Shown here one piece after another: positions 1 through 23,600 of a stretch of 34,309 bases of DNA. The position numbers and the translations under genes are program-made. The notes beneath the pieces were generated by a model that searched no databases, had not been told where the DNA came from, and worked only from the letters and a program-made list of their open reading frames with translations. Every line of letters starts with the position of its first letter. Positions within the stretch are counted from its first letter, which is position 1. The stretch is from a virus (taxonomy: Duplodnaviria; Heunggongvirae; Uroviricota; Caudoviricetes). Where the stretch lies: IMG/VR virus record IMGVR_UViG_2872152978_000008, one strand, 5' to 3'.

Positions 1-1209
1 TTACGGGGTAATGCCAACCGCTGCCGCCACTTTGTCGCCACTTGGCAGCGTTGCCAGAGGATTGAAACGGAGCGCCGTTTCCAGATGATCCGGTGCCAGA
101 TGTGCGTAACGCATAGTCATTTTTATATCGTGGTGTCCGAGAATTTTTTGTAAGGCCAGAATGTTTCCACCCGACATCATGAAGTGCGCCGCAAACGTAT
201 GGCGCAGAACGTGTGTGAGTTGACCGCGAGGGAGCACGATAGACGTTTTTTCCATCACGGATAAAAATTGAAAATAGCAGTCTGTGAAGAAATTGAACCC
301 ATCAAGCGCCATGATCTCTTCGTAAAGCTCTTTACTGATAGGGATGCTTCTGTTTTTCTTCCCCTTCGTTCTGACAAAGGTAATTCGGTATTTGGTCACC
401 TGTGAGCGGGTAAGATTTACGGCTTCACGCTAGCGTGCGCCTGTGCTTAAGCATATCTTAACTACCAGTGCCAGAATTGGGTCCTGACGTTTGCAATCAG
501 CCAGCAATTCAACAATCTGCTCATGGGTAAGCCATGCCATCTCTTTTTCTGCGATGGTGAATTTTCGCATGTTCTCCAGTGGGTTCGGATACGACCATTC
601 GCCCAGACGGGATAGTTCGCTAAAAACACTACTTAGATAGCTTTGCTCCAGGTTAATGGTGACCGGGCTTGCTCCTTTCTTCCATTTCTCGCTGAAGTAG
701 CTCTCGCCTGTCAGGCGTTTATCTCGATAGTGGGCAAACATTTTAGAGGTGAGATCGGTTGCAAGAGGATTGCCCAGAGCGTCAACCATCAACAGCAATT
801 TGTCATAGACATGCTGCCCAGCTGTCAGAGATTTACCATGTAGTTTGAACCATAGCTCAACCACGTCTTTCAGTGTTCGACGATCCACTGATTCACCCAG
901 CCAGGGCTTTGCTTCGGTTTCTTCCATCGTGTGGCGCTCAAAAGCCAGTGCTTCGCCTTTGGTGGCGAATTGTTTACGCACACGACGCCCACTTCGTCCG
1001 GCAGGGTAACATTCGCAAAGCCATTTCCCAGTGGTGAGTTTTCGTACTGCCATAAAAAATGCCCTCCAGTAGAGAGTATTTTTACTGTATGTATAACCAG
1101 TGTCAATGTATGAAATCCTACGACCATACATCTCACTGAAGCCATAATGAAGTTGGCTATTCTTTTTGCTATGTGAGCATGTAACTTTTGCGGTTAACCT
1201 GCGGCTCAT
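1..1209 (-). pseudogene. int: P2-family tyrosine integrase interrupted by an in-frame TAG at 430-432
   Basis: ORFs 430-1209 and 1-399 are in the same frame, separated only by TAG. Read-through gives LSTGAR*REAVNLTRSQV...GKKNR...HVLRHTF...MRYAHL, where P2 Int (recalled) has ARWSEAE, so TGG(W) became TAG. Catalytic R/H-x-x-R/Y residues lie downstream of the stop. Confidence 0.85.
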
Positions 1210-1241
1210 TTTTATTTTAGACGCAGATATAAAAGCAAAAG

Positions 1242-1433
1242 TTATCGTGAGTTTTTAGTACAGATTTTTTTGGATTTACTAATAGTTCCATCATTGCAAA
1301 CAAATTTTCCATCGGAGGTACAGTGAGAGACACCTCCCTTTTTCCCAGAACAAGGATAATTTTTAGCATAGGTAGTTAGTGGGCTTAATAACAAAGAGCA
1401 TGATAAAACCACAAAAAATACTTTACCAAGCAT
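1242..1433 (-). CDS. Small secreted Cys-rich basic peptide, hypothetical (possible moron)
   Basis: 63-aa ORF with strong SD (GGGAGGA) 4-5 nt before ATG. N-terminal hydrophobic signal-like segment [23 protein letters not shown], then ~40-aa Lys-rich mature part with 4 Cys. Sits in an AT-rich stretch between repressor and integrase, same strand. Confidence 0.5.
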
Positions 1434-1448
1434 AGTATCCTCCCGGTA

Positions 1449-2024
1449 TTATCTAACATATTTAACTGTTAAACTTATAATTTTACCAATTATTTCAATG
1501 TCTTCTATCTTACAGTCGAAGGCTCTGTTTCCACCCTCGACGAAGATTCTTCCACCGGGTAAACGAGTAATGTCACGGATCGTTACTTCGCCATCAATAC
1601 TTATTACCCATTTACCATCACGTATGTCATCAAATTCTTTATCACAAATAAATTCAGAATTGTTATCTGTGATGACAAAAGGTTTTTTAAACGTAGAGGG
1701 TAGAAATCCCTTATCAAAAATATAAAAACCGTCTTCACGCAAGGCACCATCAGATAATACATATTTAGCAACTTCCATAGTATTTGTATTACCTGAAGTT
1801 TGCTTTGAACCATGTCCGGTTGTGAGCCAATTAAGCGAGGTGCCCGTTTCAAGGGCGCACTGGATTACCCATTCTGCTGGGAATGAGTCACGCATGTAGC
1901 GTGTGGCGAGTGTACTTTTAGAGATTCCTAAATGATCGCACAACGCCTGTCGAGTCTTGAATCCATAAGCTTCTACCATGCGCTCTATGGCGCCTCGTCC
2001 GCCTTTCTCCAAATTCATGGTCAC
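1449..2024 (-). CDS. CI-type prophage immunity repressor
   Basis: 191-aa ORF with N-terminal HTH-like segment (TRQALCDHLGISKSTLATRYMR) and a C-terminal domain. Position between int and a divergent Apl/cII pair matches 186-type immunity region layout. Confidence 0.7.
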   Translation of the reverse strand: MTMNLEKGGRGAIERMVEAYGFKTRQALCDHLGISKSTLATRYMRDSFPAEWVIQCALETGTSLNWLTTGHGSKQTSGNTNTMEVAKYVLSDGALREDGFYIFDKGFLPSTFKKPFVITDNNSEFICDKEFDDIRDGKWVISIDGEVTIRDITRLPGGRIFVEGGNRAFDCKIEDIEIIGKIISLTVKYVR

Positions 2025-2143
2025 TCCAAGTGAACTTTTATCTTGATGATTTCACTGTGCGATCGTATGCTTATGGTGTTCACAAAATACAAACGATCCG
2101 TATTCGTCCTGATTAATCATCATTAAACGAGGAATGTTGCATC

Positions 2144-2365
2144 ATGAGACCTAACATTTCAATCACTCTTACCACGCCTCATGTGACTATTGAACGCTAT
2201 AGCGAGCTGACAGGGCTATCCATCGATACCATCAATGACATGTTGGCTGATGGACGCCTTATCCGTCACCGTCTGCGCAAAGATAAAAAACGCGAAAAAG
2301 TGATGATCAACATAGCAGCAATGACCGTTGATGCGCTTTCAGAATGCAATCTAAACCTTAATTAG
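2144..2365 (+). CDS. Apl/Cox-like small DNA-binding regulator or excisionase
   Basis: 73-aa basic ORF divergent from the repressor, with HTH-like segment ([23 protein letters not shown]). Ends with a TAG stop. Assigned by position and size. Confidence 0.5.
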
Positions 2366-2391
2366 TTCGATTCTGAAATACATCAGAGGCA

Positions 2392-2577
2392 TTGACCATG
2401 TTTGATTACCAAGTTTCCAAACATCCATATTTTGATGAAGCCTGTCGTGCATTTGCACTGCGCCACAATCTGGTGCAACTGGCAGAACGTGCAGGCATGA
2501 ATGTGCAGATTCTGCGGAACAAGCTGAACCCAGCTCAGCCTCATTTATTAACCGCACCAGAAATCTGGCTGCTTTGA
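2392..2577 (+). pseudogene. cII: CII-like regulator truncated after ~60 aa by IS911
   Basis: [59 protein letters not shown] resembles the N-terminus of 186 CII (~169 aa, recalled). Its TGA stop is the first three bases of the IS911 left inverted repeat. Confidence 0.65.
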
Positions 2578-2646
2578 AGTGGCACACTGAATTTGGCCAC
2601 CTGAACAGAGGTGATATGCTCACCTCAGAACAACACAGGTGCTCCA

Positions 2647-3815
<1,169 letters not shown>

Positions 3816-3857
3816 CCACTTCACGCCAGAGTTTTATTTGAGATCGCAAACAGGGAG

Positions 3858-4463
3858 GTGGCTTATTACAACATAAGGCAGGAGTTTAATTACTCAACTG
3901 AAATTACTGATTTCATGAAAGCGGTATATTTCCTGTATCTCAATCGTCACGGTTACCGTGGTTTATGTCGCTATAACAAGAGCGGGCATTTCAACATTCC
4001 CTACGGCAATTATAAAAATCCGTATTTCCCTGAAAAAGAAATTCGCGCATTTGCAGAAAAAGCCCAGCGAGCAACGTTTATCTGCGCCAGCTTTGATGAA
4101 ACGCTGGCGATGTTGAAGGCGGGGGATGTGGTGTATTGCGATCCACCGTATGACGGTACGTTTTCCGGCTATCACACTGATGGTTTCACTGAAGATGACC
4201 AGTATCACCTAGCATCCGTTCTTGAACATCGGTCATCAGAAGGACATCCGGTCATTGTTTCTAACAGTGACACATCCCTGATCCGTTCGCTGTATTGCAA
4301 TTTTACTCACCACTATATCAAGGTAAAACGCAGCATCGGTGTGGCAGCTGGCGAGGGTAAATCAGCAACAGAAATCATTGCTGTTTCCGGGCCGCGCTGC
4401 TGGGTGGGATTTGATTATTCGCGTGGCGTGGATAGTTCTGCCGTGTACGGAGTACGTGCATGA
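3858..4463 (+). pseudogene. Dam-like N6-adenine DNA methyltransferase, 5'-truncated fragment
   Basis: [35 protein letters not shown]...VVYCDPPY...HTDGF aligns by eye with the C-terminal ~2/3 of E. coli Dam (DPPY motif IV). The N-terminal AdoMet-binding region is missing; the fragment begins 34 bp after the IS911 right end. Confidence 0.75.
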
Positions 4464-5984
4464 GCCATGCCGATATGAACAACTGCTGCGGCTTTAACGA
4501 GGCTGCCGCAGCGTTCTCATGGAACAGCCCGAAAAAGGCCATTAACCCTTATCTGGACCCGGCGGAAGTTGCGCCGGTTTCTGCGCTTTCAAACCTGATC
4601 ACTCTGTACGCTGCCGATAACGAGCAGGAACAGTTGCGCCGCGAGGCACTGAGTGATCAGGTCTGGGAGCGTTATTTTTTTTATGAATCACGTGATCCTG
4701 TCCAGCACGAAATGGAGCAGGATAAGCTCATTAGCCGGGCAAAGCTGGCGCATGAGCAGCAGCGTTTTAATCCGGATATGGTCATTCTGGCGGACGTCAA
4801 CGCTCAGCCTTCCCATATCAGCAAGCCGCTGATGCAACGTATTGAATACTTCAGCAGCCTGGGCAGGCCAAAGGCTTATTCCCGCTATTTACGTGAGACG
4901 ATTAAGCCATGTCTGGAACGACTGGAGCATGTACGCGACAGCCAGCTATCTGCATCTTTTCGTTTTATGGCAAGCCATGTAGGGCTGGACGGCCTGCTGA
5001 TTCTGCCTGAAATGAGTCAGGATCAGGTGAAACGCCTGTCTACCCTTGTCGCTGCGCATATGAGCATGTGCCTTGATGCAGCTTGTGGTGATTTGTATGC
5101 CACCGATGACGTTAAGCCAGAAGAAATCCGCAAGACATGGGAAAAGGTGGCAGCGGAAACCCTGCGTCTGGATGTCATCCCGCCTGCGTTTGAGCAACTC
5201 CGTCGGAAAAGAAACCGCCGTAAACCCGTGCCCTATGAACTCATTCCGGGTTCGCTGGCGCGTATGTTGTGCGCCGACTGGTGGTACCGGAAATTATGGA
5301 AAATGCGTTGCGAATGGCGGGAAGAGCAGTTGCGTGCTGTCTGCCTGGTCAGCAAAAAAGCATCTCCCTATGTCAGCTATGAAGCCGTGATGCATAAACG
5401 TGAGCAGCGCCGCAAGTCATTGGAGTTTTTCCGTTCTCATGAACTGGTGAACGAAGAGGGCGACACGCTGGATATGGAAGACGTGGTAAACGCCAGCAGC
5501 AGCAACCCGGCGCACCGCCGCAATGAGATGATGGCCTGTGTTAAAGGTCTGGAGCTTATCGCGGAAATGCGCGGTGACTGCGCCGTTTTCTACACCATTA
5601 CCTGTCCGTCACGTTTCCATTCCACGCTCAATAACGGCAGACCAAACCCAACCTGGACAAATGCGACGGTAAGACAAAGCAGCGATTATCTGGTCGGCAT
5701 GTTTGCTGCATTTCGTAAGGCGATGCACAAAGCCGGGTTGCGCTGGTATGGCGTGCGGGTGGCTGAGCCGCATCATGACGGTACAGTTCACTGGCACCTG
5801 TTGTGTTTTATGCGCAAAAAAGACCGCCGCGCCATTACTGCATTGTTGCGTAAGTTTGCCATCCGTGAAGACCGCGAGGAACTGGGTAATAACACTGGTC
5901 CACGCTTTAAATATGAGCTGATAAACCCGCGCAAAGGAACGCCGACAAGCTACATCGCGAAATACATCAGTAAGAACATTGACG
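4460..5984 (+). pseudogene. A: Replication initiation gene A (rolling-circle nickase), N-terminal part, split by IS66-family insertion
   Basis: 513-aa ORF ending ...[12 protein letters not shown] at the IS66 junction; resembles P2/186 gpA. Confidence 0.85.
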
Positions 5985-6055
5985 GTAAGCGTACAGCCTG
6001 AACCGTCTGGTCAGAATCTGACGAATTAGACAAAGTGGTGTCCACCAAATAAGTA

Positions 6056-6457
6056 GTGGGAACCAAAGTGTCAGATATGCAGAAAAATGTGAATCCCGGC
6101 AGGCGAAAAGGCTGCCCTAATTATCCTCCCGAATTTAAACAGCAGCTCGTTGCTGCCTCCTGTGAACCCGGGATATCCATCTCAAAACTTGCTCTTGAAA
6201 ATGGCATTAACGCCAATCTGTTGTTCAAATGGCGACAACAATGGCGCGAGGGAAAGCTGCTATTACCTTCTTCAGAGAGCCCCCAGCTACTTCCTGTGAC
6301 TCTCGATGCAGCTGCCGAACAGCCAGAATCGCTCGCAGAGGATCCGGAAACCCTCAGTATCAGCTGTGAGGTAACGTTCCGGCACGGGACGCTCCGCTTC
6401 AATGGCAATGTCAGCGAAAAGCTCCTGACTCTGCTGATACAGGAACTGAAGCGATGA
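6056..6457 (+). CDS. IS66-family accessory protein TnpA (orf1)
   Basis: First of three co-oriented ORFs inside the IS; true start may be the internal Met at ~6077. Confidence 0.7.
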   Translation: MGTKVSDMQKNVNPGRRKGCPNYPPEFKQQLVAASCEPGISISKLALENGINANLLFKWRQQWREGKLLLPSSESPQLLPVTLDAAAEQPESLAEDPETLSISCEVTFRHGTLRFNGNVSEKLLTLLIQELKR

Positions 6458-6801
6458 TCCCGTTACCTTCCGGGACCAAAATTTGGCTGGTTGCCGGTAT
6501 CACCGATATGAGAAATGGCTTCAACGGCCTGGCGGCAAAGGTGCAGACGACGCTGAAAGACGATCCGATGTCAGGTCACGTTTTTATCTTCCGTGGGCGT
6601 AATGGCAGTCAGGTAAAGCTCCTCTGGTCTACCGGCGATGGACTGTGTCTGCTGACCAAACGGCTGGAGCGCGGCCGCTTCGCCTGGCCGTCAGCCCGGG
6701 ATGGCAAAGTGTTCCTCACACCGGCACAGCTGGCGATGCTCCTTGAAGGTATCGACTGGCGGCAGCCTAAAAGACTGCTTACGTCCCTGACTATGTTGTA
6801 A
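6454..6801 (+). CDS. IS66-family TnpB (orf2)
   Basis: 115-aa ORF overlapping orf1 stop by 4 nt (ATGA), typical IS66 tnpB arrangement. Confidence 0.75.
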   Translation: MIPLPSGTKIWLVAGITDMRNGFNGLAAKVQTTLKDDPMSGHVFIFRGRNGSQVKLLWSTGDGLCLLTKRLERGRFAWPSARDGKVFLTPAQLAMLLEGIDWRQPKRLLTSLTML

Positions 6802-6849
6802 GCCTCTTTATCCTGGTCGACGCTGAATGAGCCTGGTAATATACCCGGT

Positions 6850-8387
6850 ATGAGCAGCTCACTTCCTGACGATATCAATGCACTGAAACGTCTCCTTGCC
6901 GAACAGGAGGCGCTGAACCGTGCCCTGCTGGAAAAGCTGAACGAGCGTGAACGCGAAATAGACCATCTGCAGGCACAGCTGGATAAGCTGCGCCGGATGA
7001 ACTTCGGCAGCCGCTCCGAAAAAGTCTCCGTCGTATCGCACAGATGGAAGCTGACCTGAAGGCACTTCAGAAAGAAAGTGATACCCTTACCGGTCGGGTT
7101 GACGACCCGGCCGTGCAGCGCCCGCTGCGTCAAACCCGCACCCGCAAACCGTTCCCCGAATCACTCCCCCGCGATGAAAAACGGCTGCTGCCGGCAGCGT
7201 CATGCTGCCCGGAATGTGGAGGCTCACTGAGCTATCCGGGTGAGGATGCCGCCGAACAGCTGGAGTTGATGCGCAGCGTCTTCCGGGTTATCCGGACTGT
7301 ACGTGAAAAGCATGCCTGTACTCAGTGCGATGCCATCGTGCAGGCCCCCGCGCCTTCACGGCCCATCGAGCGGGGTATCGCAGGACCGGGGCTGCTGGCC
7401 CGCGTGCTGATCTCAAAGTATGCAGAGCACACCCCGCTGTACCGCCAGTCTGAAATGTACGGCCGCCAGGGCGTGGAGCTGAGTCGTTCACTGCTGTCGG
7501 GCTGGGTGGATGCATGCTGCCGGCTACTGTCACCGCTGGAAGAAGCGCTTCAGGATTATGTGCTGACTGACGGTAAGCTCCATGCTGATGACACGCCTGT
7601 CCCGGTGCTGTTGCCAGGCAATAAGAAAACGAAGACCGGGCGGTTATGGACCTACGTTCGTGACGACCGTAACGCCGGGTCAACGCTGGCGCCGGCGGTG
7701 TGGTTCGCTTACAGCCCGGACAGAAAAGGCATCCATCTGCAGACCCATCTTGCGGGGTTCAGTGGTGTACTGCAGGCGGATGCATACGCCGGGTTCAACG
7801 AGCTGTACCGGGATGGCCGGATAACGGAAGCCGCCTGTTGGGCTCACGCCCGCCGTAAAATCCACGATGTGCACGTTCGCACCCCGTCAGCCCTGACGGA
7901 GGAAGCGCTGAAACGGATCGGCGAACTGTACGCCATCGAGGCAGAGATAAGGGGAATGACGGCGGAGCAGCGCCTTGCCGAACGTCAGTTGAAAACGAAA
8001 CCGCTGCTGAAATCCCTGGAAAGCTGGCTGCGTGAAAAGATGAAAACCCTGTCGCGACACTCAGAACTGGCGAAAGCGTTCGCATACGCCCTGAACCAGT
8101 GGCCGGCGCTGACGTACTATGCAGATGATGGCTGGGCTGAGGCGGACAATAATATCGCTGAAAATGCGTTGCGGATGGTCAGTCTGGGCCGCAAAAACTA
8201 CCTGTTCTTCGGTTCGGATCATGGAGGAGAGCGGGGAGCGCTGCTGTACAGCCTGATCGGGACGTGCAAACTGAACGGAGTGGAGCCAGAAAGCTACCTC
8301 CGCTATGTACTTGACGTCATAGCCGACTGGCCGATAAACCGGGTCGGCGAACTGCTCCCCTGGCGCGTAGCACTGCCGACTGAATAA
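6850..8387 (+). pseudogene. IS66-family transposase TnpC carrying a frameshift near 7027-7035
   Basis: ORF 6850-7059 (MSSSLPDDINALKRLLAEQE...) and ORF 7044-8387 overlap in different frames. Adding one base in GTCTCCGTCGT restores a continuous reading ...[18 protein letters not shown].... Confidence 0.75.
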
Positions 8388-8424
8388 CACATCCCCGTCA
8401 ATACGGTTCTTGCTGCACGCTTAC

Positions 8425-9322
8425 CATTGACGGGCGTGGTCTGGCTGGCGAGATCAGCAAGGAAACGGGTAAATCCCTGCGTGATAACGCTGAATACGTT
8501 AATCCCTGGGCGTCTCTGCATCGTGTTCAGCAATTCCGCTTCTTTGGTATTCCAGGGCGTCAGGCTTACCGTGAACTGCGGTTGTTGGCTGGTCAGGCGG
8601 CAAGGCAGCAGGGTGACAAAAAAGCAGGTGCGCCGGTACTGGATAACCCGCGCCTTGATGCCATCCTGGCTGCTGCTGATGCTGGCTGTTTTGCCACCTA
8701 CATTATGAGGCAGGGCGGCGTGCTGGTTCCTCGCAAATATCACTTGATCAGAACCGCTTATGAAATCAATGAAGAGCCGACCGCCTATGGCGATCACGGT
8801 ATTCGTATTTATGGCATCTGGTCACCCATTGCAGAAGGCAAGATCTGCACTCATGCAGTGAAGTGGAAAATGGTTCGTAAAGCCGTTGACGTTCAGGAGG
8901 CGGCAGCCGACCAGGGCGCTTGCGCCCCTTGGACTCGTGGCAATAACTGTCCCCTTGCTGAAAATTTGAACCAACAGGAGAAAGATAAATCAGCTGATGG
9001 GAACCCCAGAACGGACATTACCAGCATGGATGACAAGGAGTTGCACGATTACCTGCACAGTATGAGCAAAAAAGAGCGCCGGGAACTGGCAGCAAGGTTA
9101 CGCCTGGTGAAACCGAAACGGCGTAAAGACTACAAACAGCGAATTACAGACCATCAGCGACTGCAGCTCGTGTATGAGCTGAAGTCCAGAGGATTTGATG
9201 GCAGCGAGAAAGAGGTCGATTTACTCCTTCGCGGAGGCAGTATTCCGTCAGGAGCAGGCCTGCGTATCTTCTATCGGAACCAGCGTTTGCAGGAAGATGA
9301 TCAGTGGCGGAACCTGTATTAA
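8425..9322 (+). pseudogene. A: Replication gene A, C-terminal part
   Basis: Same reading frame as 4460-5984 once the 2448-bp insertion (IS + duplication, a multiple of 3) is removed. Frame reads [31 protein letters not shown]... continuing into ORF 8582-9322. Confidence 0.8.
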
Positions 9323-9414
9323 TTACGCGGGTTAACAATTCGTGCTCTTAATAATACCAGGCATATCAGGCTGATGAACGTAAAAAAACGTTTTACATCA
9401 GTAAGATTATTATA

Positions 9415-9434
9415 TACTGTAAATATAAACAGTG
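9415..9434 (+). promoter_or_regulatory. LexA (SOS) box TACTGTAAATATAAACAGTG
   Basis: CTGT-N8-ACAG with AT-rich spacer, 42 bp upstream of the ATG at 9476, within AT-rich promoter-like sequence. Confidence 0.7.
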
Positions 9435-9475
9435 GTTATGCATGCAGTATTGCGTGTGGTGTCATAGGAGGAAAG

Positions 9476-9664
9476 ATGCAGGACTATTTTTTGGAGTCTT
9501 TGAAGCTCCAGCGCATTGATTTTTTTCTTAAGCTTGTAGCGGCTAGTGAGTGTAGTGATGAAGAGAAGGGGCTGGCTCTGCAGTGGGTTTCTGAATTGAC
9601 TGATGAACTCATGGCAAAAATCAGAACCCACGAATACAACCGCTCAATGGATGTCATCAGCTGA
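9476..9664 (+). CDS. Small SOS-regulated protein, hypothetical (possible Tum-like antirepressor)
   Basis: 62-aa ORF with AGGAGG SD 5 nt upstream and a LexA box in its promoter. The longer track ORF (from 9374) would place the LexA box inside the coding sequence. Confidence 0.5.
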   Translation: MQDYFLESLKLQRIDFFLKLVAASECSDEEKGLALQWVSELTDELMAKIRTHEYNRSMDVIS

Positions 9665-9674
9665 GGTGACTTTT

Positions 9675-9908
9675 ATGCGCATTGAAATAATGATCGATAA
9701 AGAGCAGAAGATTAGCCAGTCTACCCTGGACGCTCTTGAATCCGAGCTTTACCGCAATCTGCGCCCTCTGTATCCCAAAACGGTAATTCGTATCCGCAAA
9801 GGTAGCTCTAACGGTGTGGAACTTACCGGATTGCAACTGGACGAAGAAAGAAAACAAGTGATGAAAATTATGCAGAAGGTGTGGGAAGACGACAGCTGGC
9901 TGCATTAA
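9675..9908 (+). CDS. DinI-family protein
   Basis: MRIEIMIDKEQKISQSTLDALESELYRNLRPLYPK...VWEDDSWLH resembles E. coli DinI (MRIEVTIAK...WESADDWFVSE, recalled); GAGGTG SD upstream. Confidence 0.7.
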   Translation: MRIEIMIDKEQKISQSTLDALESELYRNLRPLYPKTVIRIRKGSSNGVELTGLQLDEERKQVMKIMQKVWEDDSWLH

Positions 9909-10043
9909 GAAACGTTGCTGGCGTCTGAACTAGCTTCTGGCGTCAGCAAGGTTGAACAACGAGCCCTTGCGAGGCGTTAGCTCTGTAGTGCATGTCTATG
10001 CCGCATGAGATCGCATGATCGTTTGAGGATCGTTTTTGCTAAG

Positions 10044-10068
10044 GCCCGCCAGAACTGGCGGGCTTTTG
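10044..10068 (+). terminator. Candidate rho-independent terminator after the SOS operon
   Basis: GC-rich hairpin GCCCGCCAG-AA-CTGGCGGGC followed by TTTTG. Confidence 0.55.
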
Positions 10069-10167
10069 CGTAGATCATGCAGGTGCATGAAAACCACTAC
10101 ATAAAGCGGGCAGGTAATGCTGCCAACTTACTGATTTAGTGTATGATGGTGATTTTAAGGTGCTTGC

Positions 10168-10443
10168 GTGGCTTCCATTTCCATCAGATGTCCTTCCTGC
10201 TCCGCTACTGAAGGCGTGGTGCGTAACGGCAAAAGCACTGCCGGACATCAGCGCTATCTCTGCTCTCATTGCCGTAAAACATGGCAACTACAGTTCACTT
10301 ACACCGCCTCTCAGCCCGGTACGCACCAGAAAATCATTGATATGGCCATGAATGGCGTCGGATGTCGCGCCAGTGCACGCATTATGGGCGTTGGCCTCAA
10401 CACGGTTTTACGTCACTTAAAAAACTCAGGCCGCAGTCGGTAA
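10168..10443 (+). CDS. insA: IS1 InsA
   Basis: [42 protein letters not shown]... is the canonical IS1 InsA. Confidence 0.9.
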
Positions 10444-10865
10444 CCTCGCGCATACAACCGGGCAGTGATGTGATTGTCTGCGCTGAAATGGACGAACAGT
10501 GGGGCTACGTCGGTGCTAAATCACGTCAGCGCTGGCTGTTTTACGCGTATGACAGGATACGGAGGACGGTTGTGGCGCACGTCTTCGGTGAACGCACTCT
10601 GACCACACTGGAGCGTCTTCTGAGCCTGCTGTCGGCCTTTGAGGTCGTGGTATGGATGACGGATGGCTGGCCGCTGTATGAATCACGCCTGAAGGGAAAG
10701 CTGCACGTTATCAGCAAGCGTTACACTCAGCGCATTGAGCGACATAATCTGAATCTGAGACAACATCTGGCAAGGCTGGGACGGAAGTCACTGTCGTTCT
10801 CAAAATCGGTGGAGCTGCATGACAAGGTCATCGGGCATTATCTGAACATAAAACACTATCAGTAA
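10362..10865 (+). CDS. insB: IS1 InsB (expressed as InsAB' by -1 frameshift)
   Basis: -1 frame relative to insA; canonical IS1 InsB sequence. Confidence 0.85.
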
Positions 10866-10889
10866 GTTGGAGTCATTACCAGCGGGCAG

Positions 10890-10910
10890 GCGTGGCGGGG
10901 ATACGATTGC
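10890..10910. other. cos-like motif GGCGTGGCGGGGATACGATTG
   Basis: First 13 nt identical to the 186 cohesive-end sequence as I recall it (GGCGTGGCGGGGAAAGCAT). It sits immediately right of the IS1 target duplication, where GC-rich phage DNA changes to the AT-rich cassette. From memory, not verified. Confidence 0.3.
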
Positions 10911-10976
10911 GCGCTAGGTATAAGTGTGTAAAATAATTCCAAAATAAATCATCACCAATGAAGTGAGAGGGTAATA

Positions 10977-12626
10977 ATGTTAGTCAAGAAAAATAAAAAT
11001 TATAGTTTATATTTTTTAATTACAAATAATCAACAGATATCTGATTCTGGTAATTATATAAAAATAGTCCCATCAAGAAGCGATTGGAATGATTTTGGAT
11101 ATTTGAGTAGAGTCGAAATATCTATTTTTAATAAAAAAGAGTGTAAGGATATAATTTCACTGAATGGTTATATTGGTTTTTTGAATTCAGAGGAGGAACG
11201 AAATGGAAAAGCAGAACTGATAAGGCGAGTGAAAAAAAAGGAAGAATCTAATTTAAAGGATGAGGGGTTTAATGATTATTTTGTCATGCTTCAGGATATG
11301 AATAATTATCGAAGACTAGTAAGATTTTTTGGGGTGAATGAATCCAAATATATATTAAATTTCATTAATGATGTTGTTTCTAAGAAAAGTGACGCTAGTG
11401 CAGAGAATTTGAGGAAAAAAGCAATCTCTTCTGATATCTTTAATAAATCTTTCATTAGAGAGTCTGAGTCGTATTTTACTTTCAAAAATGCAGGAACAGT
11501 TCTTTCCGGTATTCAATATGAGGAGTTGGGTAATTTATCACAGCACATCAAGATTAGCTATTCGAATAAAGTTAATGAAGAAGATGTATCTTATGTTTTT
11601 AATTTTGATCACGAGCATGATTTACCAAAAAGAATTTCCATAATTATAGGCGAGAATGGTGTAGGAAAAAGCCAAACGCTTAGAGAAATCGCATTGGCTG
11701 CGATTAAAGGAAAGGATAATTTGGTGGCTGTAGTTGATTCTAACGGTGTGAGCATTGAAGAACGAATTCAAATTAGTAGGCTCATTGCTTTTTCTCCAAC
11801 AAATGAAAGTAAGTGTTCATTTCCAACCGATAAAAGAATAAAATCATTGATATGGTACAAAAGATTGACTTTAAATCGTGAATCAAAATCCAAATTAAAC
11901 TTGAATGATTTAATAGTGCAACTAGCGAGGAGTAACGACGCTATCGGCTATAATCAAAGGTGGAATATATTTGTTGATGCACTGAGTGTTCTAAATAGTA
12001 ACAACGATTTAGTAATCAAATGTGGCGGTGAAAATTCACCATTTGTTAAATTAAATGAGCTTAATTCTCGAGGCGAAGAATCTAGACTATCATTATATTC
12101 TGAAATTATTCTCTCTGGCGAGCCTTTGAGGCTTATTGAAAATAAATGTTACCCTTTGAGTAGTGGGGAAATATCGTTTATTAAGTTTTGTGTACAAGTC
12201 TGTTTGTATATTGAGAATGGGACTCTTCTATTAATAGATGAGCCAGAAACACATCTCCATCCTTCATTTATTAATAAATTTATGGCATTGCTTGATAATT
12301 TATTAGAAAAGACAGGCTCTTCAGCTATCATAGCAACGCATTCGGTTTATCTTGTTCGGGAGGTTTTTAAGGAGCAAGTGACAATACTCAGAAGACGAGA
12401 TGATGGGGTAATTGTTAGCGAAAAACCGAGATTGAGTACTTTTGGGGCGAATATAGGAAATATCTCATATTTTGTTTTCGGTGAGAGTGAACCAACTCAA
12501 ATTTTAAATAAAGTAAAAAACAATATAATTGCAAAGAATATGTCTTGGGATGATGTTGAATCTAAATATAGCGAGGACTTATCACTTAATGTATTAACTG
12601 CGTTGAGAAATGAAATGGGCAATTGA
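10977..12626 (+). CDS. ABC/AAA15-type ATPase with ~220-aa N-terminal extension (PtuA-like defence ATPase candidate)
   Basis: Walker A GENGVGKSQ (~aa 226), ABC signature-like LSSGE, Walker B LLLIDEPETHLHP, H-loop ATHS. GAGAGGG SD before ATG. Very AT-rich relative to the flanking prophage. Confidence 0.75.
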   Translation: MLVKKNKNYSLYFLITNNQQISDSGNYIKIVPSRSDWNDFGYLSRVEISIFNKKECKDIISLNGYIGFLNSEEERNGKAELIRRVKKKEESNLKDEGFNDYFVMLQDMNNYRRLVRFFGVNESKYILNFINDVVSKKSDASAENLRKKAISSDIFNKSFIRESESYFTFKNAGTVLSGIQYEELGNLSQHIKISYSNKVNEEDVSYVFNFDHEHDLPKRISIIIGENGVGKSQTLREIALAAIKGKDNLVAVVDSNGVSIEERIQISRLIAFSPTNESKCSFPTDKRIKSLIWYKRLTLNRESKSKLNLNDLIVQLARSNDAIGYNQRWNIFVDALSVLNSNNDLVIKCGGENSPFVKLNELNSRGEESRLSLYSEIILSGEPLRLIENKCYPLSSGEISFIKFCVQVCLYIENGTLLLIDEPETHLHPSFINKFMALLDNLLEKTGSSAIIATHSVYLVREVFKEQVTILRRRDDGVIVSEKPRLSTFGANIGNISYFVFGESEPTQILNKVKNNIIAKNMSWDDVESKYSEDLSLNVLTALRNEMGN

Positions 12627-13491
12627 AATGAATAAATTAAAAAGACCTGTTTTTAAAGATTATTCTGCATTTAAAAAACTATCTGCAAATAAGAGATTAA
12701 AACATCATTCTGTTCTGAATGGACAGGATACATTTATACTTAATGCATATAGATCGTACATAAAGAATAAAGGGTATCTTAATGTCAATTCTTGTGGCGT
12801 ATTGAGTAACAATATTGCTGAAGCTTTGAGATATTATTATAACAATCCCGCAAAGTGTTTATCTATAATTGATGATATAAGAGCAGCTAATTCTAACTCT
12901 CTATGTCCAATGTGTGGTTCAATGCATAGCGGGACTTTGGATCATGTTTTACCCAAGGAAAACTATCCAGAATTTTCTTTATTCACTAAGAATTTGGTTC
13001 CTGCTTGCAAATGTAATACTTTCAAAAGTACTACTATAGCTAATTCTGCAGGCCATCGGATGCTGCATCCATATTTTGATAATATATTAAAACAAAGATT
13101 AATATGTGCTAATTTTTCTAAATTAGGGCGAACACCTACAATTGATGTAAAAATCATAATTGACCCAATGTCACCAGAATATAACAATGTTAAGTATCAT
13201 CTTGATAATGTTGTTATCAAGAATAATATTAAGGGGTATTTGTCTGAACAATGGGAGTCGTTTTACTTATATCCTGAGCTTGTTATTAGAGGACTGAATA
13301 AGAGTCTTTCTACTTATAGCGATGTATATGAGTTGTTGACTCGCGAGTTGTTGCTGTTGGATGAAAAACATAAAGGTAAAAATAATTGGAATTCGGTTTT
13401 TGTAGCTGGGTTAATTCGACCTGATGTGATTAGGTGGATACTCTGTGAATTACATTTAGGTAACAGAAGTCCAGACGGTCGTCTCATATGA
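12610..13491 (+). CDS. HNH endonuclease (PtuB-like defence nuclease candidate)
   Basis: CPMCGSMHSGTLDHVLPKENYPEFSLFTKNLVPACKCNTFK carries the CxxC...DH...N...CxCN HNH/zinc-finger signature. Start overlaps the ATPase stop by 17 nt (alternative ATG at 12628), suggesting translational coupling. Confidence 0.75.
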   Translation: MKWAIEMNKLKRPVFKDYSAFKKLSANKRLKHHSVLNGQDTFILNAYRSYIKNKGYLNVNSCGVLSNNIAEALRYYYNNPAKCLSIIDDIRAANSNSLCPMCGSMHSGTLDHVLPKENYPEFSLFTKNLVPACKCNTFKSTTIANSAGHRMLHPYFDNILKQRLICANFSKLGRTPTIDVKIIIDPMSPEYNNVKYHLDNVVIKNNIKGYLSEQWESFYLYPELVIRGLNKSLSTYSDVYELLTRELLLLDEKHKGKNNWNSVFVAGLIRPDVIRWILCELHLGNRSPDGRLI

Positions 13492-13501
13492 TTTTTTGCA
13501 T

Positions 13502-13527
13502 CTTCAGCGTGTATCTGCACGCTGAAG
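13502..13527. repeat. Perfect 10-bp inverted repeat (CTTCAGCGTG-TATCTG-CACGCTGAAG) downstream of the HNH gene
   Basis: Stem-loop 11 nt after the HNH stop; no canonical U-tract on either strand, so terminator function is uncertain. Confidence 0.5.
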
Positions 13528-13647
13528 AAATTCATAAAAACTGCTGCCTATTAATAAATTTTTTTAGCTGAGTTAAAGAACCTCATTTAGTGATTACGTT
13601 AAGTAGCTAGTTTATAACTATCAAATTTAACAATGTTCTCACTTACC

Positions 13648-14628
13648 AATTTATTTCCATCATTCTTTTTTGTAACGGTATTAACTCGTTACGTACAAAC
13701 ACCAGGCTCGCCTTCTCCACATCCCCAAACCCCCGACATTATTAGGCATAATCCCCATCATTTGCGGTGGCACACGATGCGCCGCCATCATGTCATCCCG
13801 GCTCACGTTCTTGATGTTCAGAAACTCATCCTTCGCCGCGACTTCTGACAACGGGATGATCTGAAGCCCGTCCTTTTTGCCGTTAGGCGAGTACATAAAC
13901 AGATTGCGGAAGTTACCTGGTCCTTTGGCGCTTTTCATCGCATTGCGGAGGTTGTTCACATCCTCCTGGTTTTGCGCGGCATCGGTCATGTACATGATGA
14001 AGCCTGCATGACTGCCGTTAATGTAATACTATCGGCGGAACAGCGTGGCGGACTCGTTGAGCAGGGCTGACGGAATGGCAGAAAGGTAACCTGGCAGGCC
14101 GTAGATCTCTTGGTTGATGTCCGGTTCCATCAGATGAAAGATGCTTCCTTTCGTGAACTGATACGGCTGCGTGGTCATGCCGTATTGCACAAACCAGTAG
14201 GTATCCAGGTCTAATCCGCGTCGGGTGTATTTTGCCAGAGCAGGCTCAAGAGCGATGACCTCTCCGAACCGGTTTGTGCGTTTCTCCAGGTAAGCGTTAC
14301 CAAATACCAGATAATCCTGCACAAAACGTGAAAAAGCCTGCTGGCTGAGCAGCGGGTGAGGGATGTAGGTACTGATCAGAATGTTGCATTTCACCGCAAT
14401 TGGTGAACTGTGATGCACGGCGGCGCGGAAGGTGCGCGCCAGTCCGTCAAAACTCACTGGCGGCTCATACCAGCGATCTGTCTGTACGCATTCCACATAG
14501 TCCAGTAGTTCACGGCGGTCCAGAACCGGAACGGGATCGCCGAAGCTGAATGCTTCGGCTGAAGTCTGGTTTTTATGCTGGGTCTGTTTCGTCGCCGCAG
14601 CGCGGTTCTTCTTACTCTTTCCCATCAA
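13648..14628 (-). pseudogene. Q: Portal protein gpQ with in-frame TAG (14029-14031) and a probable 1-bp deletion near 13727-13729
   Basis: ORFs 14029-14628 and 13681-13995 share a frame: ...ATLFRR*YYINGSHAGFIMYMTD.... Downstream the frame decays to GGLGMWRRRAWCLYVTS*, while adding one T restores a protein-like GGFGDVEKASLVFVRNELIPLQ... continuation to ~13648. Confidence 0.8.
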
Positions 14629-16391
14629 AAAATCTCCACAATATTGCTGGTATTGGCGGACTCGCCCTGCAGCGGTTCGTTAAACAGTGCGTGCATTGTT
14701 GCCCAGGCCAGATCGGCATGGCTGGCTTCTTCGCTGCGGCTGGCTTCATAGGTCGGGCGGTTGCCGCTGGCGGTGGTGGCGCGACGGATTGCCATGAATG
14801 ACTGCGCAATGTCGGTGTGCCCGGCGTCAAACTCAAGACGGCGGTGGCTGATAATGTCGTAGGCCTTGAGTACCAGGGCGTTTTTAACGTTGGGGTTGTA
14901 GACAAACTCCCGGACGGCAGGAAAAAACGCTTTCACGTTCTCGTAAACCCCGTGACCAACGCCGGTTGAGTCGATGCCGATATAGGTCACGTTGTACTGT
15001 TCAGTCAGTTTTTTGATGGCGTAAGCCTGGGCGCGAAAGTCCATTCCGCGCCACTGGTGACGCTCAAGAATGCGGAACTTACCGCCTGGCACGGCTGGCG
15101 GTGCCACCACCACGCATCCGGCGCTGTCGCCGTTCTGCGTACCTTTTGCCGGGTCATAACCGATCCACACTTCGCGCCAGCCAAACGGGCGCAGGGCCAG
15201 TGCATGAAAGTCGGTCCAGACTTCCCAGCTGTCCACCATGCACGCCTGCAATTCGCTGAGCGGGAACACGGACGCGAGATCGTCCACGAACTCGCACATC
15301 AGCAGGTTCTGGTATTCGTCAGGGCTGTACTCCATGCGCAACTGGTCAAGGTCGAACAGGTTACAGGCGCCGCGCACCGCATCTTCCACGGTGACTATCT
15401 GGCGGTATTGCCCGTCTGCGCACAGCAGGCCGGGGGCCAGATTGCTGTGGGACAGGTCGATGTCCACCTTGTCAGCTTTGTTGCGCCCACGGTTGAACAG
15501 CGCACCGGACCAGAACGGATAAGCACTGTGGGTCAGACTGGATGGTGTGGAAAAATAGGTCTGCCGCCATTTCTTGTGAATAGCCATACCAGAAGCCACT
15601 TTGCGTAGCTCCTGAAATTTCGGTATCCAGAAATATTCATCCAGATACAGGTTACCGTGATAACTCTGGGCAGTGCGGGCATTGGTGCCGAGGAAATACA
15701 GTGTGGCCCCGTTGGGAAGCACCATCGGATCGCCTTTCAGCTCCACCTCCACTTCTTTGGCAAAGTCGATGATGTACTGTTTGAAGACGTGGGCCTGTGC
15801 CTTACTGGCAGAAAGGAAAATCTGGTTACGTCCGGTAAGCAGGGCGTCAATCAGGGCTTCACGGGCAAAATAGAAGGTCGCGCCGATCTGGCGTGACTTC
15901 AGCAGGTTGCGGATGCGGTTGGTTTTTCCGGCTTCCCACCAGTGGCGCTGGTAGTTGAACATGGAGGAATGGAAATTTTTTTCCAGCTTCTCAATCTGGT
16001 CATCGGTGAAAACATTCTTTTCAGGCTGACGGCGTGGGCCTTTGTTGCGGTTGGCGACGTTAGGGTTTAAGTCGGCTTCGTTGCCGCCATTGTTAAACTT
16101 GCCGATCCGCGCGTGGCGCTCAGACTGGCGCGCCAGCAGGTCAATATCTTTGAAATCTTTCCCTTCTTTGTGCTCCTTCATGATGAGCTGGCAGTAGCGT
16201 GCGGCGGTGGTGAGCTGCATCTGATCCAGAGGCCCATAGTCACCCCACTTGTCGCGTTTTTTCCAGCTGTAAACGGTTGCAACTTTCTCGCCCAGCATTT
16301 CAGCAATGCGGGCTACGCGGTATCCCTGAAAGTACAGCAGCATGGCCTGCCGACGGGGATCGAGATCTGCGGGTGTCAGTGTGGTGTTCAT
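14625..16391 (-). CDS. P: Terminase large (ATPase) subunit gpP
   Basis: 588-aa ORF, size and sequence consistent with P2 gpP; divergent from O as in P2. Confidence 0.9.
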   Translation of the reverse strand: MNTTLTPADLDPRRQAMLLYFQGYRVARIAEMLGEKVATVYSWKKRDKWGDYGPLDQMQLTTAARYCQLIMKEHKEGKDFKDIDLLARQSERHARIGKFNNGGNEADLNPNVANRNKGPRRQPEKNVFTDDQIEKLEKNFHSSMFNYQRHWWEAGKTNRIRNLLKSRQIGATFYFAREALIDALLTGRNQIFLSASKAQAHVFKQYIIDFAKEVEVELKGDPMVLPNGATLYFLGTNARTAQSYHGNLYLDEYFWIPKFQELRKVASGMAIHKKWRQTYFSTPSSLTHSAYPFWSGALFNRGRNKADKVDIDLSHSNLAPGLLCADGQYRQIVTVEDAVRGACNLFDLDQLRMEYSPDEYQNLLMCEFVDDLASVFPLSELQACMVDSWEVWTDFHALALRPFGWREVWIGYDPAKGTQNGDSAGCVVVAPPAVPGGKFRILERHQWRGMDFRAQAYAIKKLTEQYNVTYIGIDSTGVGHGVYENVKAFFPAVREFVYNPNVKNALVLKAYDIISHRRLEFDAGHTDIAQSFMAIRRATTASGNRPTYEASRSEEASHADLAWATMHALFNEPLQGESANTSNIVEIF

Positions 16392-16533
16392 GGCACAAAC
16401 CTACAGCCTTGAATGAAGGCTTTCCCCGCCTGCGGTTTGTGTGGTTGTCGGTACAAATACCGCGCATTGTTTCACTGCCCCTATCACCGCAACCATAAGG
16501 CTCCAGTAAGTTTTTTCTAACGGAGCACGGCTC

Positions 16534-17367
16534 ATGACAGTGAAAGCAAAGCGTTTTCGCATCGGGGTGGAAGGTGCCACCACCGACGGACGCGAAATCC
16601 AGCGTGAATGGCTGGAACAGATGGCAGCCAGCTATAACCCGGCGGTGTATACCGCGCTGATTAACCTTGAGCACATCAAGTCTTATCTGCCGGACAGCAC
16701 CTTTAACCGCTACGGCAAGGTGACGGCGCTGTTTGCTGAAGAAATCACGGAAGGTCCGCTGGCAGGCAAGATGGCGCTGTATGCTGACGTTGAGCCAACG
16801 GAGTCCCTGGTGGAACTGGTGAAAAAAGGCCAGAAATTATTCACCTCTATGGAAGTCAGCCCGAAGTTCGCTGATACGGGCAAAGCCTACCTGGTCGGCC
16901 TGGCTGCCACTGATGACCCTGCCAGTCTGGGCACTGAAATGCTGACATTCAGCGCCAGTGCAGCCCATAACCCGCTGGCAAACCGCAAGCAGAATCCCGC
17001 CAATCTCTTTACCGCCGCAGAGGAAACGGTGATCGAACTGGAAGAAGTCCAGGACGACAAACCGTCCCTGTTTGCCCGCGTCACGGCGCTGTTTACCAAA
17101 AAAGAGCAGTCCGATGACGCCCGGTTCTCTGATGTGCATAAGGCCGTGGAGCTGGTCGCCACTGAGCAGCAGAACCTGAGCGCACGCACCGAAAAATCCC
17201 TGTCTGAGCAGGAAGAACGCCTGTCTGAGCTGGAGACTGCCCTGCAGGCACAGCAAACCGCCTTTAACGAACTGGTGGACAAGCTGAGTCATGAAGACAG
17301 CCGCCAGGACTACCGCCAGCGTGCAACAGGCGGTAACGCCCCCGCTGACACTCTGACCAATTGCTGA
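16534..17367 (+). CDS. O: Capsid scaffolding protein gpO
   Basis: 277 aa with Ala/Glu/Gln-rich coiled-coil C-terminal half, upstream of the major capsid gene. Confidence 0.85.
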   Translation: MTVKAKRFRIGVEGATTDGREIQREWLEQMAASYNPAVYTALINLEHIKSYLPDSTFNRYGKVTALFAEEITEGPLAGKMALYADVEPTESLVELVKKGQKLFTSMEVSPKFADTGKAYLVGLAATDDPASLGTEMLTFSASAAHNPLANRKQNPANLFTAAEETVIELEEVQDDKPSLFARVTALFTKKEQSDDARFSDVHKAVELVATEQQNLSARTEKSLSEQEERLSELETALQAQQTAFNELVDKLSHEDSRQDYRQRATGGNAPADTLTNC

Positions 17368-17383
17368 TGGAGCACAAAACCTG

Positions 17384-18442
17384 ATGAAGAAGAATACCCG
17401 CTTTGCTTTTAACGCTTACCTGCAGCAACTGGCGCGTCTGAACGGTGTGGCAGTTGAAGAACTGTCCAGCAAGTTCACCGTAGAGCCGTCCGTGCAGCAG
17501 ACGCTGGAAGACCAGATCCAGCAGTCCGCCGCTTTCCTGACTCTGATTAACGTCACGCCAGTGACTGAGCAGTCCGGTCAGCTGCTGGGGTTGGGAGTTG
17601 GCAGCACCATTGCCGGAACCACTGATACCACTGCGAAAGAGCGTGAACCTGTCGATCCGACGCTGATGGTCGATGTGGAATATAAATGCGAGCAGACCAA
17701 CTTTGACACGGTGCTGACCTACGCGAAGCTGGACCTGTGGGCGAAGTTTCAGGATTTTCAGGTGCGTATCCGTGACGCCATTGTGAAACGTCAGGCACTG
17801 GACCGCATCATGATCGGCTTTAATGGCGTGAAGCGTGCGAAAACCTCCAACCGTAGCGAAAACCCGCTGCTGCAGGATGTGAATAAAGGCTGGCTGCAGA
17901 AAATCCGTGAGGATGCACCGGATCACGTCATGGGCAGCACCACCACGGGCGGTGAAACCACACCGGGCGCAGTGAAAGTCGGGAAAGGTGGCGAATATGC
18001 CAACCTGGACGCCGTGGTGATGGATGCCGTCAATGAGCTTATCGACGTGGTCTACCAGGACGATGACGATCTGGTGGTGATTTGCGGTCGTGAACTGCTG
18101 TCTGACAAGTATTTCCCGCTGGTCAACAAAGAGCAGGAAAACAGTGAAAAACTGGCTGCCGATATGATCATCAGTCAGAAACGCATGGGTGGCCTGCAGG
18201 CCGTGCGTGCGCCGTTCTTCCCGCCGAATGCGCTGCTGATCACCCGTCTGGATAACCTGTCCATCTACTGGCAGGAAGACACCCGCCGCCGTTCAGTTAT
18301 CGACAACCCGAAACGTGACCGGATTGAAAACTTTGAATCCGTTAACGAAGCCTATGTGGTTGAGGACTACCGCTGCGCCGCACTGGTGGAAAACATCCAG
18401 ATTAGTGATTTCAGCGCCGCCGCAGCCGAAACCGGAGCGTAA
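17384..18442 (+). CDS. N: Major capsid protein gpN
   Basis: 352 aa; position and length as P2 gpN. Confidence 0.9.
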   Translation: MKKNTRFAFNAYLQQLARLNGVAVEELSSKFTVEPSVQQTLEDQIQQSAAFLTLINVTPVTEQSGQLLGLGVGSTIAGTTDTTAKEREPVDPTLMVDVEYKCEQTNFDTVLTYAKLDLWAKFQDFQVRIRDAIVKRQALDRIMIGFNGVKRAKTSNRSENPLLQDVNKGWLQKIREDAPDHVMGSTTTGGETTPGAVKVGKGGEYANLDAVVMDAVNELIDVVYQDDDDLVVICGRELLSDKYFPLVNKEQENSEKLAADMIISQKRMGGLQAVRAPFFPPNALLITRLDNLSIYWQEDTRRRSVIDNPKRDRIENFESVNEAYVVEDYRCAALVENIQISDFSAAAAETGA

Positions 18443-18445
18443 TCC

Positions 18446-19096
18446 ATGAGCCTGAGTCCCGCACGGCAGCATCGCCTGCGCGTTCAGGCTGAACAGGCCG
18501 CCCGTGAGGGTGGCAGTGTTCGCCACGCATCGGGCTATGACCTGATGCTGCTGCAACTGGCGGAAGACCGCCGCCGTCTCAAGGGCGTTCAGTCCACGGT
18601 CAAAAAAGCGGAAATCAAAGTGGAGCTGCTGCCGAAGTACGCCGCCTGGGCGGAGGGTGTCCTGGCTGCCGGAGGCGCTCAACAGGATGACGTGCTGATG
18701 TACGTGATGTTGTGGCGCATTGATGCCGGAGATTATGCCGGGGCGCTGGAGATCGGGCGTCATGCCCTGCGTCATGGATGGGTGATGCCGCTGGGCAACC
18801 GCAACGTGCAGACCGTGCTGACAGAGGAAATGGCAGATGCAGCGCAGAGCGCAATGCTTGCCGCCACCGGCTTTGATGCCGATCTGTTGCTGAAGACGCT
18901 GGAGCTGACAGACGGTCTGGATATGCCGGACCAGTCACGGGCACGTCTGCATAAAGCGATTGGCGCGGTCCTGAGTGAAAGCAATCCGGCTTCCGCCCTT
19001 AATCATCTCAACCATGCGTTACAGCTCGATCCCCGCTGTGGCGTGAAAAAAGACAAACAGCAGCTGGAGCGCAGACTGCGCAATGACAGCCGCTGA
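18446..19096 (+). CDS. M: Terminase small subunit gpM
   Basis: 216 aa immediately after N, as in P2. Confidence 0.8.
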   Translation: MSLSPARQHRLRVQAEQAAREGGSVRHASGYDLMLLQLAEDRRRLKGVQSTVKKAEIKVELLPKYAAWAEGVLAAGGAQQDDVLMYVMLWRIDAGDYAGALEIGRHALRHGWVMPLGNRNVQTVLTEEMADAAQSAMLAATGFDADLLLKTLELTDGLDMPDQSRARLHKAIGAVLSESNPASALNHLNHALQLDPRCGVKKDKQQLERRLRNDSR

Positions 19097-19191
19097 CAGA
19101 ACGTGCCCCCGCGCACGGGCGGCACGGGGTGGCGAAAGGCACAGCCACATCAAAAACCCGTCCACCGCCCTTTATTTCAGGAGAAAGCAGC

Positions 19192-19638
19192 ATGAAGTTT
19201 GTTGCGCCAGAACAGGCACCGGAACAGGCGGAAATCATTAGAAATACGCCGTTCTGGCCTGATGTGGACCTGTCGGAGTTTCGCAGTGTCATGCGCACTG
19301 ACGGCACGGTGACGCAGCCGCGTTTAAAGTAGGTTGCACTGTCGGCAATTTCGGAGGTTAACGCAGAGCTGTATGAGTTTCGCAGACGCCAGCAGATGCT
19401 GGGGTATGCGTCGGAACAGCTGGACGGGAAAAGTGAGCGCATTCAGCACTATTTCAACGCGGTTTACTGCTGGGCTCGCGCCATGCTCAACGAACGTTTC
19501 CAGGACTATGACGCCACGGCATCCGGTGCGAAGCGGGGCGAAGAACTGGCGGAAGCAAGCGGTGATTTGTGGCGTGACGCCCGCTGGGCCATCAGCCGGG
19601 TGCAGGACGCGCCGCACTGCACAGTGGAGCTTATCTGA
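19192..19638 (+). pseudogene. L: Head completion protein gpL interrupted by in-frame TAG at 19330-19332
   Basis: AGGAG SD then ATG at 19192. MKFVAPEQ...TQPRLK*VALSAISEVNAELYEFRRRQQMLGYASEQ...DLWRDARWAISRVQDAPHCTVELI is continuous in one frame apart from the TAG. Confidence 0.75.
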
Positions 19639-22278: not shown

Positions 22279-22328
22279 TGCTGCCAACTTACTGATTTAG
22301 TGTATGATGGTGATTTTAAGGTGCTTGC

Positions 22329-23026: not shown

Positions 23027-23036
23027 GTTGGCAGCA

Positions 23037-23545: not shown

Positions 23546-23600
23546 TGCAGAGATAATGGCTAACTGGCATCATCCCCGGTTTTTATTCAGGGGATTGATC

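Follow-up and report, generated by a model that had tools for sequence, protein, structure and literature searches.

The 34,309-nucleotide stretch of DNA analyzed here (IMG/VR virus record IMGVR_UViG_2872152978_000008, referred to below as the window) is a P2-like prophage in which the integrase gene int, the portal gene Q, and the head-completion gene L are each interrupted by one in-frame amber codon (TAG). Very probably, these ambers reflect ordinary nonsense pseudogenization by drift in a multiply defective P2-like Shigella prophage. In each gene, the stop replaces a conserved sense codon through a single base change, such that the window holds three separate single-base nonsense substitutions. 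The sequence-only reading that drew attention to them gave their positions and codons exactly. The genes and their ambers are the following:

1..1053, minus strand: int pseudogene, P2-type tyrosine integrase of 350 codons (Pfam Int_N and Phage_integrase)
430..432, minus strand (CTA on the plus strand): int amber, W208 TGG>TAG, a G:C>A:T transition (G>A on the coding strand)
13599..14625, minus strand: portal gene Q pseudogene (Pfam Phage_portal; NCBIfam portal_PBSX on the N-terminal fragment)
14029..14031, minus strand (CTA on the plus strand): Q amber, K199 AAG>TAG, an A:T>T:A transversion (A>T on the coding strand)
19192..19638, plus strand: head-completion gene L pseudogene (Pfam Phage_GPL)
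19330..19332, plus strand: L amber, Q47 CAG>TAG, a G:C>A:T transition (C>T on the coding strand)

Exact-protein look-ups identified accession CP026840.1, which matches the whole window at 100% identity; the window is absent from the E. coli complete-genome set. Gene order and nucleotide identity both place the element among the P2-like phages (Peduoviridae). It is ~95% identical to the Klebsiella phages KP12 and 4LV2017 (megablast), and the intact prophage annotated in E. coli UPEC-245U (NZ_CP049845.1) aligns with it in six collinear blocks at 99.5–99.8% identity. Both the element and the UPEC-245U prophage lie between rcdA and ybjL on the chromosome. The same degraded prophage is present in the related assemblies CP026807, CP026823, CP026825, CP026828, CP026832, CP026834, CP026842, and CP045784, and in many draft and Logan assemblies. 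CP026832 is the PacBio sequence of S. dysenteriae 14 ATCC 49346 (PMC10132075), and because it carries a sister copy of the prophage, the host is a Shigella of the CP026832 clade; the exact species and serotype of CP026840.1 itself are inferred from this. The element no longer carries every gene needed for replication, head and tail assembly, and lysis. It is a remnant and cannot be a viable phage: the damage amounts to four insertion sequence (IS) insertions and ~8 kb of deletions of essential early and tail genes.

Ancestry and inheritance of the amber codons

Ancestral codons were read base by base from the nearest intact relative, the UPEC-245U prophage, and the proteins of the interrupted genes were compared in MAFFT alignments with those of UPEC-245U, 4LV2017, and P2. 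This comparison with orthologous prophages, which had been proposed together with the initial observation, returned TGG for int codon 208, AAG for Q codon 199, and CAG for L codon 47. The lost tryptophan of the integrase directly follows the box-I arginine (LSTGAR-W) and is kept in 4LV2017 and P2. Likewise, the Q lysine is kept in all three outgroups, and in 20 further intact prophages Q codon 199 is AAG or AAA in 8/8 covering loci. Residue 47 of L is Gln in close relatives and Glu in P2; among the same 20 prophages, its codon is CAG in 11/11 covering loci. The Pfam matches of the three genes were obtained with the ancestral residue put back at the stop, and they agree with the RefSeq annotation of the 99.5%-identical intact prophage, which upholds the original assignment of the genes as int, Q, and L. 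The reading frame was also said to be intact on both sides of each stop. This is correct only for int, where the amber is accompanied by a single missense change (I118S), but not for Q, which has a 4-bp deletion close to its 3′ end and a 1-bp homopolymer deletion that may be an assembly error, nor for L, which has an 18-bp in-frame deletion.

Among the related assemblies that were fetched and that cover each site, the TAG is present in every locus of the degraded lineage: 9/9 for int, 21/21 for Q, and 21/21 for L. The carriers include Logan assemblies of the separate runs ERR6005829, SRR8186610, SRR5023684, ERR5984638, SRR35899657, and ERR6005837. Since the codons recur in every covering locus of the lineage, independent read sets included, they are true inherited mutations that arose before the carrier strains diverged. 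Moreover, five related loci have the Q amber without the 4-bp deletion in Q; thus the amber preceded this deletion.

Neutral decay and the expected share of ambers

For random coding mutations in the prophage genes, the neutral expectation computed under the lineage's own mutation spectrum is 31% synonymous, 65% missense, and 4.6% nonsense changes. The prophage genes hold 14 synonymous, 26 missense, and 3 nonsense fixed changes (n=43, for which ~2.0 nonsense changes are expected), and 10 synonymous, 17 missense, and 3 nonsense polymorphic changes. The older divergence of the flanking host genes, with 158 synonymous, 23 missense, and 0 nonsense changes, shows purifying selection; recent changes in the same genes number 8, 17, and 4, respectively. 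Taken over the whole element, given that int, Q, and L alone hold too few changes, the prophage genes show no purifying selection after the lesions. Collectively, these data show that the prophage is drifting without selection and that its nonsense count is as expected.

That all three lesions are amber had been called mildly unexpected, at roughly 1 in 27 if the three stops were equally likely. This figure is too low. Contrary to a common intuition, mutation in E. coli and Shigella does not produce the three stop codons with equal probability. Across the 47 ancestral phage genes, which comprise 10,799 codons, we enumerated every single-base change that leads to a stop, by stop type. With all substitutions equal, the probability that a nonsense change gives TAG is 0.395 and that of three out of three is 0.06; with transitions favored fourfold, these values are 0.49 and 0.12. 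The lineage's own spectrum was taken from 59 polarized mutations among ~30 related loci, of which 39 (66%) are G:C>A:T, 7 G:C>T:A, 7 A:T>C:G, 3 A:T>G:C, 2 A:T>T:A, and 1 G:C>C:G. Under this spectrum, TAG accounts for 0.52–0.55 of nonsense changes and the probability of three ambers is 0.14–0.16. About half of new nonsense codons are thus expected to be amber (52–55% of nonsense events), because the G:C>A:T bias acts on abundant CAG and TGG codons (the ancestral stock comprises 349 CAG, 162 TGG, 84 CAA, and 56 CGA). The realistic chance of three ambers is therefore ~1 in 7, which is not notably improbable.

These considerations lead to the following model. Three unrelated point mutations very probably accumulated by drift in a cryptic prophage that was already, or was becoming, non-functional. 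With no selection acting on the phage genes, ~4–5% of random coding substitutions create a stop, and the G:C>A:T bias together with the common CAG and TGG codons makes TAG the single most likely new stop. The ambers most likely do no more than truncate Int, Q, and L, with no consequential read-through, and suppression cannot rescue the element. We infer that neither selection nor a suppressor was involved.

The expectation can be compared with stop-creating substitutions outside the three window sites. Such substitutions were surveyed in the ancestral frame of 61 reference coding sequences of the prophage and host flanks, in all related loci. In addition to the window ambers, the following were found:

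prophage gene D: Q49 CAG>TAG
prophage gene P: W152 TGG>TAG
host dacC: W280 TGG>TAG
host potF: Q250 CAG>TAG
host potH: Q104 CAG>TAG
host potH: S109 TCG>TAG
YdcA-like gene: C38 TGT>TGA

The ten independent stop-gains thus comprise nine TAG, one TGA, and no TAA. A G:C>A:T change at CAG or TGG underlies seven of the ten, two window ambers among them. It had been considered that related prophages might carry TAA or TGA lesions at a similar frequency; the outcome was the opposite, with TAG in 6/7 of the further stop-gains. Because these further stop-gains, in prophage copies and in host genes, are mostly TAG, the predominance of ambers is a mutation property of the lineage that affects host and prophage genes alike and is not specific to int, Q, and L.

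The same survey also provides what weighs against a purely ordinary origin of the ambers. Nine TAG out of ten, against 52–55% expected, has a probability of ~0.015–0.023, a post hoc value for a set that includes the three cases that prompted the survey; for the seven new events only, 6/7 corresponds to P ~0.08–0.10. In addition, all seven G:C>A:T stop-gains gave TAG, where ~60% would be expected. These numbers leave a weak residual amber excess. That the Shigella lineage has a true excess of ambers among new nonsense codons, beyond what G:C>A:T pressure and codon usage produce, is in our view quite improbable. If true, it would imply an unrecognized context-specific mutational process, or past amber suppression or weak UAG termination that lowered the cost of UAG lesions in host genes.

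One further candidate stop-gain, T L161 TTA>TAA in ten 95%-identical prophages, was rejected as an alignment-register artefact: T is an intact open reading frame (ORF) of 824–1025 residues in all of them except one, in which no T gene is listed. Look-ups with the K lysozyme and the FII tube protein for more decayed copies returned only intact E. coli prophages with no new stop-gains, and these prophages were used as outgroups. Published proportions of TAG, TAA, and TGA among Shigella pseudogene lesions were not found in a literature search; Belinky et al. 2021 (PMC7918605) discuss read-through but give none.

In one sister strain, the 21.7-kb locus L030 (CP026828.1) carries six private coding mutations, all of which are G:C>A:T and none of which is synonymous. 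Three of them are CAG>TAG changes (in D, potF, and potH), a strikingly large nonsense share in so small a set.

Suppression, methylation, and other proposed origins of the ambers

One alternative, very improbable, is that the lineage has, or had, an amber-suppressor tRNA or weak termination by release factor 1 (RF1). Partial read-through would make UAG lesions more tolerable and favor their retention, and some full-length Int, Q, and L could still be made. The amber share in the prophage and host flanks together (9/10, nominal P ~0.02) speaks for such a process. Moreover, the claim that the genes are suppressible in a supE or supF background is right at the codon level, and supE would restore Gln47 of L. 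However, the excess is only marginal in independent events (6/7, P ~0.09), and the prophage genes are neutral, so tolerance cannot explain retention there. TAG also acts as a genuine stop in this lineage. The Apl/Cox-like gene (2144..2365, plus strand, 73 codons) ends at a natural TAG at 2363–2365, as had been pointed out, and does so in the intact relative as well. Of the phage genes in that relative, 3/47 (Apl, J, and G) terminate at TAG, and among the flanking host genes 3/27 (rimK, yliI, and rcdA) do so. Only three in-frame TAGs occur in ~30 kb, each of them a derived single-base change, which is not what TAG reassignment or programmed read-through would produce, and no tRNA gene lies within the window. 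Finally, V, W, J, I, most of H, and early genes are lost and A is split by an IS66-family element, such that read-through would be without phenotype. Suppressibility is thus biologically moot, given the other lesions.

Even less probable is a Dcm hot spot, in which deamination of 5-methylcytosine converts CCAGG to CTAGG or CCTGG to CCTAG. Amber hot spots in lacI are classically ascribed to deamination at Dcm sites, as reportedly shown by Coulondre et al. in 1978. Two of the three ambers indeed arose at CAG or TGG by C>T or G>A, and the nearby host dacC W280 TGG>TAG lies in CCTGG. The contexts in the window argue otherwise: gcTGGc in int, agCAGg in L, and an A>T transversion in Q, none of which lies in CCWGG. 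Of all ten stop-gain contexts, only that in dacC fits (1/7 of the G:C>A:T stop-gains), and a Dcm origin was therefore rejected for the three window sites.

It is hardly credible that the ambers are laboratory conditional-lethal (sus/am) mutations of the type familiar from classical P2 genetics, or that they stem from chemical treatment of the strain. What speaks for such an origin is that every one of the three stops is an amber and that Q and L belong to the class of essential genes that served for am mutants: the P2 record lists gpQ (portal) and gpL (capsid completion protein) as head genes, and the classical P2 literature reportedly has them as essential. The private mutations of locus L030, six G:C>A:T changes with three CAG>TAG among them, also count in its favor. 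Against this, numerous Shigella assemblies with differing IS content and differing other mutations share the ambers, which hence predate strain divergence. The phage is not P2 itself (~95–96% identity to sequenced relatives and 99.5% to the UPEC prophage), and it occupies a natural chromosomal site together with IS damage. Nor is the genome otherwise intact, as it has the four IS elements, the ~8 kb of deletions, and the 4-bp frameshift in Q.

The idea that the TAGs are errors of a long-read assembly carries next to no weight: the window does come from a long-read assembly series, of which CP026832 is described as PacBio, and its three 1-bp homopolymer deletions resemble consensus errors, but the TAGs are substitutions rather than homopolymer indels, and the miscalls that had been envisaged are rejected by their recurrence across projects, separate Logan runs, and every covering related assembly.

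Other lesions and likeness to known systems

Ordinary nonsense decay in a defective prophage, the reading that we prefer, has its setting in the remaining damage to the element:

2575..3823, plus strand: IS3-family (IS911-like) insertion in the CII-like gene, from comparison with the intact prophage
5985..8424, plus strand: IS66-family element that interrupts replication gene A and is flanked by an 8-bp target duplication (CATTGACG)
10114..10881, plus strand: IS1 copy with a 9-bp target duplication, inserted between the genes for the DinI-like protein and the AAA ATPase
13645..13652, minus strand: 4-bp deletion in Q (ATTTATTT>ATTT), last ~17 codons frameshifted
13729: 1-bp deletion in Q (C6>C5) in a homopolymer run
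19411..19412, plus strand: junction of the 18-bp in-frame deletion in L, LAEVPA lost, in all 11 loci checked
22274..23041, plus strand: IS1 copy truncating tail gene S, adjoining a ~6 kb deletion
23042–23536: inverted H-fibre remnant adjoining the IS1 of gene S
25114, plus strand: 1-bp deletion in the sheath gene FI (G4>G3), gene split
27012: 1-bp deletion in the tape-measure gene T (G6>G5), gene split

A 1.8-kb deletion adjoins the IS911-like element; it begins in the 3′ part of the CII-like gene, takes out Fil, DUF5347, DUF2732, and TraR, and ends within dam, whose 5′ part is lost. The ~6 kb tail deletion removes V, W, J, I, most of H, and G. Among the loci that cover the site, the IS1 at 10114..10881 is present only in CP026840.1. 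The 1-bp deletions at 13729, 25114, and 27012 occur only in the CP0268xx long-read assemblies and are probably consensus errors, although real slippage may also account for them. In Q, the 1-bp deletion alone, the 4-bp deletion alone, and both together are all observed, a pattern that would need homoplasy.

The IS66-family element has itself decayed. Its transposase (6850–8387, plus strand) is split into 69 and 447 residues in the window, and because it is a single ORF (512 residues) in sister strains, the decay is local to this copy. The region 23042–24167 is an invertible tail-fibre remnant (a 178-residue Collar-domain ORF on the minus strand) that is flipped relative to the UPEC reference; the neighboring gene, for a Cin/Gin-type invertase, is intact and differs by R139L. 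An AAA_15/AAA_21 ATPase of 549 residues and an HNH endonuclease (293-residue ORF) are encoded at 10977–13491 (plus strand), in the interval that separates the DinI-like gene from Q. The pair matches the PADLOC candidate defence system PDC-M01A/B; PtuA (Septu) models give weaker matches to the ATPase. In a prophage that is otherwise decaying, these two ORFs are intact, with a single missense change; in some sister strains, the ATPase gene has lost 7 bp close to its 5′ end.

Host genes beside the prophage carry lesions as well. The dacC W280 stop (17546–17548 of locus L004, ~6 kb past the left end of the window) is present in 7/8 related assemblies. In the left flank, a 2-bp deletion in mdfA and a 1-bp deletion in gstB occur in all eight related assemblies (loci L002–L009). 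A GT-rich run of mdfA also varies through other indels, and both genes are additional host pseudogenes. Sister strains also show repeated independent lesions in potFGHI, the putrescine transporter operon (loci L023–L032, ~4–8 kb past the right end of the window): potF Q250*, potH Q104*, potH S109*, a 1-bp deletion in potH, and an insertion in potG. This suggests convergent loss of the operon or relaxed selection on it in this Shigella clade.

In relation to known systems, the window shares with the Peduoviridae (the UPEC-245U prophage, 4LV2017, and P2) the gene order int-CI-Apl-CII...A...Q-P-O-N-M-L-X-Y-K...FI-FII-E-T-U-D-ogr. Relative to those phages, the window copy lacks ~8 kb and has gained four IS elements and three nonsense codons.

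The likeness to classical sus/am mutants lies in the single UAG in each of the essential morphogenetic genes Q and L, and in int, all formally suppressible by supE, supF, or supD. In a true am mutant, however, the rest of the genome is intact and a suppressor host restores growth, whereas the other lesions of the window prophage make suppression irrelevant; moreover, its ambers are natural mutations passed on within a wild lineage. With the read-through stops of Belinky et al. 2021 (PMC7918605), the window has in common in-frame stops that are conserved across several related genomes. In that study, read-through was argued from purifying selection around the stop. The genes surrounding the window ambers, in contrast, are neutral, and the conservation of the stops is explained by recent common ancestry (>99.5% identity).

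The closest parallel is the decay of cryptic prophages and pseudogenes in Shigella. Here, as there, an element at a conserved site of the chromosome accumulates IS1, IS911-like, and IS66-family insertions, IS-adjacent deletions, small indels, nonsense codons, and neutral substitutions, and the nearby host genes dacC, potF, potH, mdfA, and gstB decay too. The finding matters little beyond annotation, where its practical value lies: int, Q, and L of this element should be given pseudogene status, and the element should be recorded as a defective prophage. Nothing material sets it apart from Shigella prophage decay, the sole peculiarity being that all three nonsense codons are TAG, and the phenomenon is an already known one, textbook prophage decay in a genome-reducing pathogen.

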